UHGV virus genome: UHGV-1580203
Length of the DNA: 11,573 nt
Source of the DNA: a virus
Direction: 5' to 3' (one strand)
The translations under genes were made by a program, and so were the position numbers. How positions within the stretch are numbered: position 1 is the stretch's first letter; each line of letters begins with the position of its first letter. Positions 1 through 11,573 of the stretch are shown piece by piece. Under the pieces are notes generated by a model. The model did not search any database, was not told where the DNA came from, and saw only the letters and a list, made by a program, of their open reading frames with translations.

Positions 1-52
1 CAACGACCTTCTAAGTCGTGGGCCGCAGGTTCGAATCCTGCAGGGCGCGCCA
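1..52 (+). tRNA. argU: tRNA-Arg(UCU), 3' portion only (5' part lies upstream of window)
   Basis: Seen: anticodon stem-loop ACGAC/CTTCTAA/GTCGT with TCT anticodon at 10-12, T-arm GGTTCGAATCC at 29-39, acceptor 3' strand GCGCGCCA ending CCA at 50-52. Matches my recollection of E. coli argU; only the 3' 52 nt are visible. Confidence 0.85.
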
Positions 53-3669: not shown

Positions 3670-4032
3670 TTAACGACCTGCTGCGCGGAGTTTTCCGTCA
3701 GGTTCACCGGCAAGAGTCAGTAATTGTCCCTGGTCTTCCTGCAGAATAGTCAGGCGACCACCGCGATTGACATACATCGGCGTTTCGGTGGTGTCTTCTT
3801 CGGAAATTTTCCCGCGGTTAGTTGGGCGAACATATGAGAGTTTGTGTTTGATTTTCACACGGTTCTCATCAAACGGTTCGATTTCCAGATTGAGTGAGAC
3901 CTTCCCTTTGGTTTTCGTGTTCATCACACCGGAAGCGACCTCACTGAGAACTGCGCCGATTTTGGTTTCAAATACGCCGCCGTCCAGCTCCCCGATAAAT
4001 GCCTGCACATCAGTACTGCGTTCGCTAGCCAT
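3670..4032 (-). CDS. yfdP: Hypothetical phage protein, YfdP-like (120 aa), start at internal Met of the 182-aa ORF
   Basis: Internal start MASERSTDVQ preceded by RBS AGGAG with 7-nt spacing; the upstream 62 codons of the listed ORF are GC-rich and not protein-like; 120-aa length matches recollection of yfdP. Confidence 0.65.
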   Translation of the reverse strand: MASERSTDVQAFIGELDGGVFETKIGAVLSEVASGVMNTKTKGKVSLNLEIEPFDENRVKIKHKLSYVRPTNRGKISEEDTTETPMYVNRGGRLTILQEDQGQLLTLAGEPDGKLRAAGR

Positions 4033-4080
4033 TTTGCTGCTCCTCATCATATCGACCCTGCAAGGTCGGTTGGTTTCTCC

Positions 4081-4169
4081 ACAAAACAGAGAAGAACACC
4101 TGCGGTGGCAGCCGCCCGGATGGATTGGGTTATGAGCCCGTCGTCCGGTGATGCTCTTCTCTGTTTTGT
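4081..4169. repeat. Long imperfect inverted repeat (18-bp arms, one mismatch) flanking a 53-bp GC-rich core
   Basis: Seen: 4081-4098 ACAAAACAGAGAAGAACA versus reverse complement of 4152-4169 (ACAAAACAGAGAAGAGCA); on the minus-strand RNA the mismatch becomes a G-U wobble, giving an 18-bp stem; inner segment has CCGGA/TCCGG pairing. Confidence 0.6.
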
Positions 4170-4460
4170 AAAAAGAGCGGTGCCAGCCGGAAGCAAGTGT
4201 ACAAACTGGTACCGCCAAAGCAGTGGCTGTTGTGGTGCCGGGTGCCTCCCGGTGCCTGGCGAAGGTTGCACACCAGGCGGGTGGGTATCCACAGAAGGTC
4301 GACTGTCAGCCTCAACCTTAACCCGCGTGCGCTGAGCCGCATTCACCACAACGCTAAGGATTCTCTCTGGTTGAAAATACTTAGCTGTTATGTGCCTGCT
4401 TTTAGCCACATCAGGCGAGGTGGACCTGGTTATTCCCCAACAACAAGGATTCGGTTAATC

Positions 4461-4489
4461 TTGATACCCCCAATAACATGGTGATTATT
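4461..4489 (+). promoter_or_regulatory. Candidate promoter for the 167-aa plus-strand gene (-35-like TTGATA, A/T-rich -10-like GATTAT/TTATTT)
   Basis: TTGATA at 4461-4466 and a -10-like hexamer 16-18 bp downstream, ending a few bp before the ATG at 4494 (transcript would be near-leaderless); by eye only. Confidence 0.3.
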
Positions 4490-4493
4490 TAAG

Positions 4494-4997
4494 ATGGACA
4501 AATTTGATAGAAGTGCACAAAGGCAGTTGTTACAAATACTGTATGATGCTCATCCTTATGAAATTTCTGATGATGCGTTGCAGTCTGTTCGTGACGCATT
4601 TGGAGATGATAATGTCCTAATTTCGAACTTAATTTATCTCGAAGAACATGGCTTGATTAAGAATGCTCTTGATTATTACTTGGATGGCATAAATATAAAT
4701 ATTCCTGAATTAAGAATTACTAAAGATGGAATTGATTTCATTCGTGATGATGGAGGTCTTAAAGCTATTCTTGGGATTATGACAATAAGATTGCATGATG
4801 AGACTCTCTGTGAACTTGAACGTATCATCAATAGTTCTACTTCTGCCACGACTGAAGATAAGAAGAAATTACTCTCTCAGCTTCGAACGCTTCCTGCCGA
4901 CGCCATAAAACAGCTGACGATTCGATTACTTGGTCAGGGGCTTGACCATCTGCCGGACGTATTTCACGTAATTCAAAAAGCCCTCCATTCTCTGTAA
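4494..4997 (+). CDS. Orphan 167-aa protein, unknown function (AT-rich moron in the immunity-adjacent slot)
   Basis: Uninterrupted 167-codon frame through visibly A/T-rich DNA with A/T-ending codons, opposite in orientation to the flanking early-left operon; followed by a plus-strand intrinsic terminator at 5175-5198; no family recognised. Confidence 0.6.
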   Translation: MDKFDRSAQRQLLQILYDAHPYEISDDALQSVRDAFGDDNVLISNLIYLEEHGLIKNALDYYLDGININIPELRITKDGIDFIRDDGGLKAILGIMTIRLHDETLCELERIINSSTSATTEDKKKLLSQLRTLPADAIKQLTIRLLGQGLDHLPDVFHVIQKALHSL

Positions 4998-5130
4998 ATT
5001 CTGATTCTGGTCGGATTAGACAGAATCGTCCCCATCCGACCTGCTTACTAAGTAGAATCCAGAATTCGTCTTGTTGGTTGGTGCTGATAAAAAATCCATT
5101 AGGATGAACGTAAGCACAGAATATGACCAT
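4837..5130 (-). CDS. Possible small protein (97 aa) antisense-overlapping the 3' end of the 167-aa gene; uncertain
   Basis: ATG at 5130 preceded by AAAGAGGGTTCT (GAGGG RBS, about 5-nt spacing); first ORF downstream of the putative pL; overlaps the convergent gene by about 160 nt, so it may be a shadow ORF. Confidence 0.25.
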   Translation of the reverse strand: MVIFCAYVHPNGFFISTNQQDEFWILLSKQVGWGRFCLIRPESEFTENGGLFELREIRPADGQAPDQVIESSAVLWRRQEAFEAERVISSYLQSWQK

Positions 5131-5174: not shown

Positions 5175-5198
5175 AAGCGTCCTGTAGGGCGCTTTTTT
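5175..5198 (+). terminator. Rho-independent terminator for the 167-aa gene transcript
   Basis: Stem AAGCGTCC (5175-5182) / GGGCGCTT (5187-5194) with one G-U pair, loop TGTA, then run of six T (5193-5198). Confidence 0.6.
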
Positions 5199-5364: not shown

Positions 5365-5401
5365 TTGCGAGATATGCAAGTGATATTTGCGAGATATGCA
5401 A
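5365..5401. promoter_or_regulatory. OL-like operator pair: two identical 15-bp sites TTGCGAGATATGCAA separated by 7 bp, with overlapping leftward promoter (pL-like)
   Basis: Seen: exact direct repeat at 5365-5379 and 5387-5401; same TTGCGNGATANGCAA pattern as the site at 6169-6183 in the cI-cro intergenic region; minus-strand TTGCAT -35-like hexamers lie within the sites. Confidence 0.6.
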
Positions 5402-5410
5402 ATTTATAGG

Positions 5411-5435
5411 TAATAAAAAGCCACCTTTCGGTGGC
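5411..5435 (-). terminator. Rho-independent terminator downstream of cI
   Basis: On minus-strand RNA: GCCACC-GAAA-GGUGGC (6-bp stem, GNRA-type tetraloop) followed by UUUUUAUUA; 20 nt downstream of the cI stop. Confidence 0.65.
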
Positions 5436-5455
5436 CGATGGATGGGATATTGAGG

Positions 5456-6148
5456 TTAATTATGTCTCTTAAGGGTTTGCGACTGACTGATTAAGACCTT
5501 TCCAAAGACCATGAATCGGTGTTCGTTTTCGCTAGTAATTCCCCATTCACGGTAAATCTGGTTATCAGAAATCACCAGCAGTTTGTCAGGAATCATTTGA
5601 AGTCTTTTAACGTATATTTTGTCATCAAAACCAAAGACATATATACCATCACCATCAAACTGATTGATGCTGACATCAACGAAGATGAGATCTCCTGGCT
5701 CAATGGTTGGACACATACTGTCCCCACGAACGTTGATAACTTTGATGTGATTGGCTGGTCGTCCGCCGAACATTGATACAGCATTATCAGTTCTGTATTC
5801 GATGGCATGAATCACATCAATGACATCACCGCCCTGGATAAGGCCATTTCCCGCACTGGCACTGATATCCAGCATTTCAATACGGAACACATCCTTCACC
5901 TGCGCAACATCCTCATTATTACTGTTTTTATATACAGTATTACTTTTGTGGGCAGAGGTAAAGAGATCAGCAATATCAACACCTAAGCTCTTGGCAATAT
6001 TACTCAGTGTTTGTTCGGTAAATTGTTTTTGCTTACCCGTTTCTAAGCGCGAGATGTTCGCCGCATCTACTCCTATCGCTTCAGCGAGATCGGCGATTTT
6101 CATGTTCTTCGCTTGGCGAAGTTGTCTGACTCGGTTTCCTATGTTCAT
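5456..6148 (-). CDS. cI: CI-type prophage repressor (N-terminal HTH, C-terminal LexA-like S24 autopeptidase domain)
   Basis: 230 aa; N-terminal HTH (VRQLRQAKNMKIADLAEAIGVDAANISRLETGK); C-terminal GDSM (catalytic Ser) and VKRL (catalytic Lys) motifs of the S24 family; divergent from a cro-like gene. Confidence 0.93.
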   Translation of the reverse strand: MNIGNRVRQLRQAKNMKIADLAEAIGVDAANISRLETGKQKQFTEQTLSNIAKSLGVDIADLFTSAHKSNTVYKNSNNEDVAQVKDVFRIEMLDISASAGNGLIQGGDVIDVIHAIEYRTDNAVSMFGGRPANHIKVINVRGDSMCPTIEPGDLIFVDVSINQFDGDGIYVFGFDDKIYVKRLQMIPDKLLVISDNQIYREWGITSENEHRFMVFGKVLISQSQTLKRHN

Positions 6149-6245
6149 GCGTTTATTACATTTCTTTATTGCGTGATAAGCAAATCAACTTGCGCAAAAT
6201 AATTGCGTGAAATAACATGCATAACGCGCAATATTTGGAGGGCGT
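6149..6245. promoter_or_regulatory. OR region with divergent PRM/PR-like promoters and about three operator sites
   Basis: Sites fitting TTGCGNGATANGCAA at 6169-6183 (best), 6203-6217 (weaker) and 6217-6231 (inverted); minus-strand -10-like TGTAAT (6155-6160) placed so the cI mRNA would start at or near its AUG (no SD upstream of cI); GGAGG RBS at 6237-6241 for cro. Confidence 0.65.
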
Positions 6246-6506
6246 ATGCAATCACCATTACGAAATGTGCGTAAGGCGCATGGTTTCACTTTGCAGCATG
6301 TTGCTGCGGGTGTTCAAGTCAATCCAGCGACGTTGAGTCGTATTGAGAGGCTGGAGCAGATTCCATCTATCGAGCTTGCAGAACGTTTAGCCAATTTTTT
6401 TAAGGGTGAAGTCAGCGAAATGCAGATTCTTTATCCGGCACGTTTTCAATCTAGCCAAAACCAGAATGGGTTTAAACCACAGGAACAGGAGGTGAACCGT
6501 GGGTAA
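6246..6506 (+). CDS. cro: Cro-like HTH transcriptional regulator (XRE family)
   Basis: 86 aa; HTH segment GFTLQHVAAGVQVNPATLSRIERLEQ; first gene rightward of the operator region, divergent from cI; GGAGG RBS. Confidence 0.88.
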   Translation: MQSPLRNVRKAHGFTLQHVAAGVQVNPATLSRIERLEQIPSIELAERLANFFKGEVSEMQILYPARFQSSQNQNGFKPQEQEVNRG

Positions 6507-11370: not shown

Positions 11371-11573
11371 ATGCGTGATATTCAGATGGTTCTTGAACGT
11401 TGGGGAGCGTGGGCGGCTAATAATCATGAAGATGTGACCTGGTCGTCCATTGCCGCCGGTTTTAAGGGATTAATTCCTTCAAAAGTAAAATCTCGCCCGC
11501 AATGTTGTGACGATGACGCGATGATCATTTGCGGGTGCATGGCCCGTCTGAAAAAGAACAACAGCGATTTACA
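11371..11573 (+). CDS. Q: Late-gene antiterminator Q (phage 82/DLP12 QuuD-like), 5' partial, runs off window end
   Basis: ATG at 11371 with RBS GGAGAAAG; translation [67 protein letters not shown] matches my recollection of the DLP12-type Q N-terminus including the Cys cluster; truncated, so absent from the ORF track. Confidence 0.8.

Follow-up and report, generated by a model that had tools for sequence, protein, structure and literature searches.

The 11,573-nt DNA of the viral genome UHGV-1580203 (the window, by which the whole analysed stretch is meant) is a lambdoid prophage integrated beside a tRNA-Arg gene, and the subject here is its interval at positions 4033-4493, between yfdP and a divergent plus-strand gene. 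With a probability of about 0.6, this interval is a terminated RNA leader of the leftward early operon, which releases a structured small RNA (sRNA) and gates the genes from yfdP to int. On the minus strand the order of elements from 5′ to 3′ is P0, P1, M2, a short linker, an intrinsic terminator, M1, a small hairpin and the ribosome-binding site (RBS) of yfdP (Table 1). Two operator-like copies of TTGCGAGATATGCAA left of the cI-type repressor gene suggest that the promoter pL sits just left of cI and is directed leftward, and with the interval lying in the leader of that operon the minus strand would be the sense strand. A preliminary description of the window had proposed a structured RNA or cis element on the leftward, pL-sense transcript of this interval, which is borne out by folding z-scores, covariation and strand-specific U:G pairs; a 124-nt STnc100-like domain and the intrinsic terminator had escaped it.

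Folding and covariation of the leader

The interval was aligned with the phages PhiR49, SfIV, SfII, ST64B, 118970_sal3, an Stx2c phage, cdtI, LLS and phiES15, and with about 60 further IMG/VR homologues that were collected by a 15-nt motif. The helices covary across phages of Escherichia, Salmonella, Klebsiella, Cronobacter and other enterobacteria. The G+C content peaks at 0.587 between 4051 and 4350, the flanks having about 0.33-0.50, confirming the GC-rich segment that had been noted. Minus-strand folding z-scores relative to shuffled sequences were −7.35 for M1, −3.09 for M2, −4.53 for P0 and P1 together and −4.43 for the whole 461 nt, and for both M1 and M2 the minus strand folds better than the plus strand. 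Changes from U-A to U:G, as well as standing U:G pairs, are compatible with the minus strand only in the alignments of both elements.

M1 contains the inverted repeat on which attention had first been drawn to this interval, and the repeat is exactly as it had been described, with 17 of 18 positions complementary between 4081-4098 and 4152-4169 and a lone A:C mismatch on the plus strand that becomes G:U in the minus-strand RNA. No other 18-nt inverted repeat with at most one mismatch and a loop of at most 100 nt occurs in the 11.5-kb window, and 60 shuffles gave none. The repeat extends to 25 nt with 84% complementarity (4081-4105 / 4145-4169) and M1 has a predicted free energy of −50.2 kcal/mol. 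The folding and covariance analysis that had been proposed for it was positive on both counts, RNAalifold on ten variants yielding a stem of 25 bp in which five pairs are compensatory and several are U:G, the latter being A:C on the other strand. The stem is able to extend over the U tract of the terminator, to 4174. The site of M1 is fixed directly behind the terminator and ahead of GUGGAGAAAC, and in type C phages an unrelated long hairpin takes its place.

M1 is a P1-type helix: it shares the base motif ACAAAAC...GUUUUGUGG with P1, P1 in ST64B and in type B/D phages stands directly behind a terminator as M1 does, and the M1 loop motif GGGCUCAUAACCC is also found in the P1-type hairpin of one homologue (L016). 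A plausible role of M1 is that of an RNase III, processing or stabilising site. RNase III processing hairpins occur in the lambda N leader and in T7 early mRNA, and likewise M1 and P1 are duplexes of at least 20 bp between functional units of a polycistronic transcript, M1 moreover lying just 5′ of an RBS. The hairpin, for which the preliminary description had suggested a processing site among other roles, is plausibly part of a processed 5′ untranslated region (UTR). The RNase III tables of Gordon 2017 make no mention of ymfH or xisE, the genes of the K-12 homologue described below.

Upstream of M2, the P1 position holds a long hairpin in all phage types, with unrelated interiors and a kept CACAAC/GUUGUG base. 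The 3′ strand of P1 overlaps the 5′ closing strand of M2, and the base changes in concert, including CACAAU/AUUGUG, matched with the closing strands of M2 (CACAAU/AUUGUGGUG/CACCACAAU in L073 and L083). The M3 box around P0 is 97% identical in the Cronobacter phage phiES15 and 81-84% identical in Salmonella and Klebsiella phages, and the place of P0 is taken in other phage types by the hairpins GCCGG/CCGGC, CCUCG/CGAGG or AGCCGG/CCGGCU. Similarly, equivalents of P(−1) are CUGG/CCAG in phiES15 and e14, CUUGG/CCAAG in SfII and UCCUU/AAGGA in sal3, and the small hairpin before yfdP is replaced by GCCCC/GGGGC in the SfII type and by GGCGG/CCGCC in ST64B, LLS and Klebsiella phages. The linker variant AGCCACUGCUUU (4217-4228, minus strand) is common to the window and the Stx2c and cdtI phages, most relatives having UUUAUGCUGUGUGUAGUC; it is complementary to AAAGCAGGC of P0 (4395-4403) and forms with it an alternative outer helix around P1 and M2 in the minimum free energy fold. 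Salmonella phages of the sal3 type (118970_sal3; L005 and L023) have a T-loop-like GGTTCGATTCC inside P1, possibly a tRNA fragment.

M2 and its kinship to STnc100

M2 is composed of the closing stem GUUGUGGUG/CACCACAAC, an AAU junction, H1, a variable H2, H4 and the invariant H5 CCGGGAGGCACCCGG. The invariant H5 hairpin reads, with its flanks, GGCACC-GGGAGGCACCCGG-CACC, and the GTGCC repeats reported earlier at 4234-4256 are present as the plus-strand image of this segment. When 22 distinct variants were put into a condensed, structure-parsed alignment, the cells were paired to 97%, and to about 35% in slid controls. The value of 97% is biased upward by the picking of H4 arms by complementarity, the variety of pair types being unbiased. 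Compensatory changes were found in six of the seven pairs of H4, in two of the four pairs of H2 and in the outermost closing pair (G-C to A-U), and the covariation score was reached by none of 500 shuffles. A covariance model of M2 was dropped, MAFFT having misaligned the H4 arms between phage types.

An Rfam scan had been proposed for the interval. In gathering mode it returned no RNA-family match there, STnc100 included, and nine relatives together with the whole ST64B genome yielded only isrK and C4 antisense RNA in this mode. A permissive scan gave a single significant match, of M2 to STnc100 (RF02076), with 35.6 bits (E = 3-4e-6) over model positions 31-147 of 206, a score below the gathering score of 47 bits for this family. 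The 19 nt of H5 and the 3′ closing strand are identical to copy 2 of STnc100 in the prophage Fels-1 and differ by one mismatch from copy 1. Both full-length Fels-1 copies end in terminators. The three STnc100 matches of Fels-1 (L134, plus strand) lie between the Q and holin genes at 12432-12645, 12846-12968 and 13969-14187, and an isrG RNA was seen at 37239-37517.

Scanning species-representative genomes with a 21-nt motif gave 24 loci, in Escherichia, Shigella, Pantoea, Superficieibacter, Enterobacter, Kluyvera, Buttiauxella, Raoultella, Trabulsiella, Leclercia and Citrobacter, and these split by H1 into two sub-types. The sub-type with H1 CCCCC...GGGG is STnc100 proper and usually stands ahead of terminators and lysis-type genes. 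The sub-type with H1 GCGGCUCAGCGCACGC, to which the window belongs, is followed by GUGUGGAGA... and by early-left genes, yfdP homologues for example. Intermediates, met in other genera and with either type of H1, carry the common H5 and closing motif.

STnc100 and PasD are related prophage sRNAs near Q and lysis genes (2026 preprint, 10.64898/2026.05.13.724894), and STnc100 has also been located downstream of stx2 (PMC12370729). M2 has in common with this family the closing helix, the AAU junction, H1, a variable middle, H4 and CACCGGGAGGCACCCGGCAC beside the 3′ closing strand, as well as the residence in lambdoid prophages of enterobacteria. An intrinsic terminator is often found behind the domain, as in the window, where it falls outside the Rfam alignment. 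M2 differs in its H1, which is GCGGCUCAGCGCACGC and not CCCCCUGUGCGGAGGGG as in STnc100, in having P0 and P1 ahead and, in the window, M1 behind, and in its location in the early-left (pL) leader downstream of cI, whereas canonical copies are found among Q, stx and lysis genes. By its sequence and predicted structure, M2 is a divergent, sub-threshold relative of the STnc100/PasD family of prophage sRNAs at a genomic location new for this family. The literature yielded no account of an early-left sub-type. PasB was considered as an identity and ruled out, being located among structural genes.

The domain was also met in other arrangements. In an IMG/VR homologue (L118, about 4350-4563, minus strand) P1 and M2 are part of a tRNA array of tRNA-Asn, tRNA-Tyr, tRNA-Thr, P1-M2 and tRNA-Ser, with no terminator behind M2 and with the 3′ end of tRNA-Thr in the place of P0. 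Tandem arrays of the domain are found in L073 and in L157, the latter being a Trabulsiella locus with two STnc100-type copies about 400 nt apart. In Buttiauxella (L145 and L146) M2 is followed directly by the small hairpin, the RBS and a yfdP homologue, the terminator and M1 being lacking.

The terminator and RNA 3′ ends in the K-12 homologue

The stems of the terminator differ wholly among phage types, being GUCGGCGUC/GACGCCGAC in ST64B, GCCCGC/GCGGGC in phiES15 and GCGGCAUC/GGUGCCGC in type C, and the form of a hairpin plus a U run is kept. A weak boxA-like motif, CCGCTCTTTTTAC, had been pointed out next to M1. The string is there, and it consists of the 3′ arm of the terminator and its U tract. 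Relatives read CCGTCCTTTTT, GCCGACCTTTTT or CCGCCCTTTTT, and these changes go together with changes in the 5′ arm; the string is a terminator arm and is not kept as a boxA.

M2 sequence is present in 1843 of 5426 complete E. coli genomes, about a third, K-12 included. In the e14 prophage of K-12 the leader aligns with that of the window from P0 to the small hairpin and continues directly into xisE-intE. Term-seq data (Adams et al. 2021, PMC7815308, supplementary files 1 and 3), transferred to the features of the window by alignment, contain e14 minus-strand 3′ ends at 1201423, 1201257 and 1201195, none of which was scored Rho-dependent (PMC7815308). The strongest, 1201423, occurs in all three growth conditions and lies 2 nt past the P0 stem, equivalent to about 4392 in the window. 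The end at 1201257 lies 4 nt past the closing stem of M2, and the end at 1201195 is the last U of the predicted terminator tract. Thus, the e14 region is transcribed on the predicted strand even when uninduced. The terminator works in vivo in e14 and the discrete RNA ends coincide with predicted domain borders, those after P0 and after M2 being borders without a U tract. The discrete small RNAs that the preliminary description had envisaged are thereby found in the K-12 homologue, and a structured leader with a working terminator accounts for the e14 3′ ends listed as 'internal' and 'orphan' in Term-seq. In the Reg-Seq study intE-xisE-ymfH is one operon within the YmfT (e14 induction) iModulon, from which read-through into the downstream genes upon induction follows.

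Proposed working of the leader

We propose that transcription arriving from the immunity side would be partly stopped at the terminator, and that the products would be trimmed back to the stable domains M2 and P0, giving structured small RNAs akin to STnc100. The yfdP-int mRNA would be made only by polymerases that pass the terminator, and its 5′ UTR would start at M1, whose duplex of about 25 bp absorbs the U tract of the terminator and may serve as the RNase III, processing or stabilising site discussed above. By partial termination, trimming and read-through the module would thus both yield a small RNA, which might act in trans, and attenuate the early-left genes. Lambda 6S RNA, made from pR′-tR′, and StxS of Stx phages are Q-dependent sRNAs of terminated leaders. 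The likeness is that the terminator in the leader gives a short structured RNA and that the operon needs read-through; the difference is that Q acts at pR′ in those cases, whereas here the operon is the early-left one and no antiterminator is known for the phage group.

Several observations weigh against a terminated leader of this kind. In the window the terminator is only modestly stable (−16.5 kcal/mol, z = −2.4), and its loop is large. The Term-seq ends come from e14, another prophage, whose M2 has two changes in H5. A consensus scan of the window found no sigma-70 promoter on the minus strand just 5′ of P0, and transcription may need to start at pL, about 900 nt off, and to run antisense through a moron gene. 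Types B/D and Buttiauxella carry M2 without terminator or M1, so that the terminator is not obligatory for the role of M2. In phage LLS a good pL promoter, TTGACC-17-TAGATT, was read manually about 25 nt ahead of the M3 box, other manual readings being unconvincing.

The leader extends the reach of the STnc100/PasD family from the late region to the early-left operon, and it gives an entry point to the transcription control of xis- and int-containing genes in N-less phages such as SfV, SfII, ST64B, e14 and the relatives of CPS-53. A bolder proposition, which we regard as doubtful, is that the early-left sub-type (P0-P1-M2) is a distinct and unrecognised RNA class heading the left operon of N-less lambdoid phages. 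Candidate roles would then be a switch of read-through or processing that replaces N, or an early RNA aimed at host systems, and 'ymfH' of K-12 would be an RNA gene and not a protein gene. The domain, present in about a third of complete E. coli genomes, stands there unannotated or is called hypothetical protein YmfH.

Alternative roles of M2

M2 might, alone or with a phage or host factor, act in cis as a processive antiterminator that replaces N and carries polymerase past the terminator at 4170 and later ones, which we consider unlikely. SfII, SfV and SfIV, close relatives of the window prophage, encode no N, cII or cIII (SfIV genome paper, PMC3851460), and M2 is situated in the pL operon immediately 5′ of a terminator, has invariant closing strands and an invariant H5, and precedes genes that are co-induced in e14. 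Against this, the K-12 transcripts bearing M2 stop at the adjoining terminator, Fels-1 has three members of the domain family in its Q-controlled late leader, two of them followed by terminators, and elsewhere the domain stands without any terminator or within a tRNA array. The put-like RNA that had been suggested for the interval found no support in the comparison with phage HK022. Put, which suppresses termination independently of proteins by way of the β′ zinc-binding domain, is likewise a non-coding RNA in the pL leader of an N-less lambdoid phage and lies 5′ of terminators, but it is about 70 nt long with two stems, its start coincides with +1 of pL, and another copy lies downstream of pR. 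M2, with 124 nt and five helices, lies about 900 nt from the operator-marked pL. The HK022 putL was extracted and has no likeness to M2 in sequence or structure, the motifs of M2 are absent from the HK022 pL region, and no second copy of M2 was found in the window, on the pR side from cro to position 11573 included. Phage HK639 is said to have one put site only. As for a lambda-type nut site, which has a boxA and a boxB hairpin and works with N, the boxA-like string is not conserved and varies with its partner arm, and the open reading frames (ORFs) of the interval have no match to an N-like family.

M2 could also be a tRNA-like punctuation or stable-RNA module, a cloverleaf-like fold that the host RNases P, E, Z or III would cut from the polycistronic transcript and that would serve chiefly in processing and stabilising the flanking RNAs and less in trans. 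Its five helices have the topology of a class II tRNA, with a closing stem, three arms and a 5-bp arm stacked on the closing stem, and the position between tRNA-Thr and tRNA-Ser in L118, the tandem arrays in L073 and L157 and the K-12 3′ ends at domain borders without a U tract are in keeping with such a module. ARAGORN, however, reported no gene in the window and Rfam no tRNA (RF00005) match within 3950-4560 at E ≤ 10, the loop of H5 is 5 nt long and not a T loop, there is no CCA 3′ of the closing stem, and the 3′ ends could equally be given by exonuclease trimming. We hold this role to be improbable, and a terminated leader that releases M2 remains the preferred reading.

Coding potential, the ymfH annotation and the repeat as a mobile element

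The interval is non-coding. Long ORFs exist on both strands and none is conserved in relatives, every one of them being broken by frame-shifting indels or stops in relatives of at least 91% identity in which yfdP is intact. Thus the absence of a convincing protein frame, as seen in the preliminary description, was upheld. The longest ORF (4047-4409, minus strand, 120 aa) is the counterpart of K-12 YmfH, and that the interval encodes a small YmfH-like protein is a reading in favour of which stand the annotation of 'ymfH' over homologous DNA in K-12 and many RefSeq genomes, the 68% identity of the two proteins, and the report that an e14 'ymfH' clone, when over-expressed, is among the prophage-derived triggers of the RcaT toxin of retron-Sen2 (bioRxiv 10.1101/2020.06.22.160242). 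This reading is largely refuted. The middle segment of the protein alignment between the window and K-12 is frame-shifted, and of 57 distinct variants no more than 5 have the YmfH frame complete. A stop in the M1 loop, M1 having been read in another frame, ends 46 of the variants, and Salmonella variants stop after 20 codons. Pfam and NCBIfam gave no matches for the ORFs of the interval, and PHROG matched ORFs on either strand of the same stretch, a pattern typical of conserved non-coding sequence that has been over-annotated. In the RNA helices the substitutions are compensatory. In K-12, ymfH (b1142, NC_000913.3 1201069-1201380; L136 5070-5381, minus strand) is a translation of M2, the terminator and M1, with its GTG start inside the closing stem of M2; the ORF encloses an intrinsic terminator at which a 3′ end is mapped, and ymfH is probably not a protein gene. 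The trigger of the retron could in that case be a structured RNA, and an early RNA aimed at host systems would be compatible with the effect of this clone.

That the 89-bp repeat-bounded unit is an inserted element of the miniature inverted-repeat transposable element (MITE) type, its arms being terminal repeats as had also been suggested, or a DNA-level protein-binding palindrome, is barely credible: a Klebsiella phage with different neighbouring sequence has an M1 unit of 85% identity, and a 62-nt M1 piece occurs alone in the phages LLS, Flotzy and Eeyore, but the arms have no flanking direct repeats, their changes are compensatory with G:U pairs on the minus strand only, the place between the terminator and GUGGAGAAAC is fixed and occupied by a non-homologous hairpin in other phages, the loop motif inside the P1-type hairpin of L016 points to shuffling of RNA modules and not to transposition, and a search for the presence or absence of the unit among the roughly 60 variants found no exact empty site with target duplication, those without M1 also changing or losing neighbouring modules. 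The protein-coding and mobile-element readings are effectively excluded.

Genomic setting

Table 1. Features of the window and of the leader at 4033-4493, by position.
Feature	Position	Strand	Basis and remarks
tRNA-Arg, 3′ part	1-49		Rfam gathering-mode scan, the single match of the window in that mode
Integrase gene	68-1231	minus	
yfdP	3670-4032	minus	ATG 4030-4032, RBS GAGGAG 4040-4045; RefSeq on identical sequence; PHROG 204, E = 1e-49
Small hairpin CGACC-UUGCAG-GGUCG	4053-4068	minus	Predicted; just 5′ of the yfdP RBS
M1	4076-4169	minus	Core arms 4081-4098 / 4152-4169; 20-25-bp stem, branched loop with conserved GGGCUCAUAACCC hairpin
Intrinsic terminator	4170-4215	minus	Hairpin GCGGUACCAG...CUGGCACCGC 4177-4215; U tract UCUUUUU 4170-4176
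M2, 124 nt, five helices	4229-4352	minus	Rfam STnc100 match, covariation
P1, long hairpin CACAUAAC-AGCUAAG...CUUAGC-GUUGUG	4347-4394	minus	
M3 box, conserved, holding P0	4386-4423	minus	Alignment with relatives
P0, hairpin GCCUG...CAGGC	4394-4416	minus	
P(−1), weak hairpin CCUUG...CCAGG	4425-4448	minus	5′ of a conserved ACCACC box; read by eye from the sequences
Promoter-like TTGATA-16-GATTAT	4461-4488	plus	Consensus scan only; serving the divergent gene 4494-4997
Low-GC (33%) gene	4494-4997	plus	PHROG 3983, E = 3e-59; hypothetical in RefSeq
Operator-like repeats TTGCGAGATATGCAA, two copies	5366-5404		Left of cI
cI-type repressor gene	5456-6148	minus	
cro	6246-6506	plus	

Sequence identical to that of the window occurs in E. 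coli NCTC86, where RefSeq annotates the minus-strand genes intD, yfdT, a phage protein, yfdR, yfdQ and yfdP, and nothing between yfdP and the plus-strand ORF at 4494. The gene yfdP heads the leftward operon yfdP-yfdQ-yfdR-...-int. In relatives the element is always located downstream of, and on the same strand as, a cI-type repressor gene, and is followed by varied early-left genes. The TTGCGAGATATGCAA copies left of cI look like the operators between cI and cro, where related TTGCG...GCAA sites were seen at 6165-6235. A clean terminator lies right behind the cI stop on the minus strand at 5419-5436, and a two-way terminator-like hairpin at 5175-5194. The PHROG 3983 gene runs antisense within the leftward operon and is moron-like. 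Its 3′ end is overlapped by a minus-strand ORF of 97 aa (4837-5130) without homologues, which was considered as a YmfJ homologue or an N-like protein and rejected, being neither homologous to YmfJ nor Arg-rich or N-like.

Genes for isrK and C4 antisense RNA, which are absent from the window, are found in the rightward early region of relatives, both together in ST64B (L012 30004-30192) and an Stx2c phage (L009 4873-5061) and isrK alone in cdtI (L010 5084-5160). In the K-12 prophage CPS-53, the yfdP copy (L135 3586-3967) has 19 nt of the leader left, the remainder being replaced by GACGG-type repeats beside yfdO.

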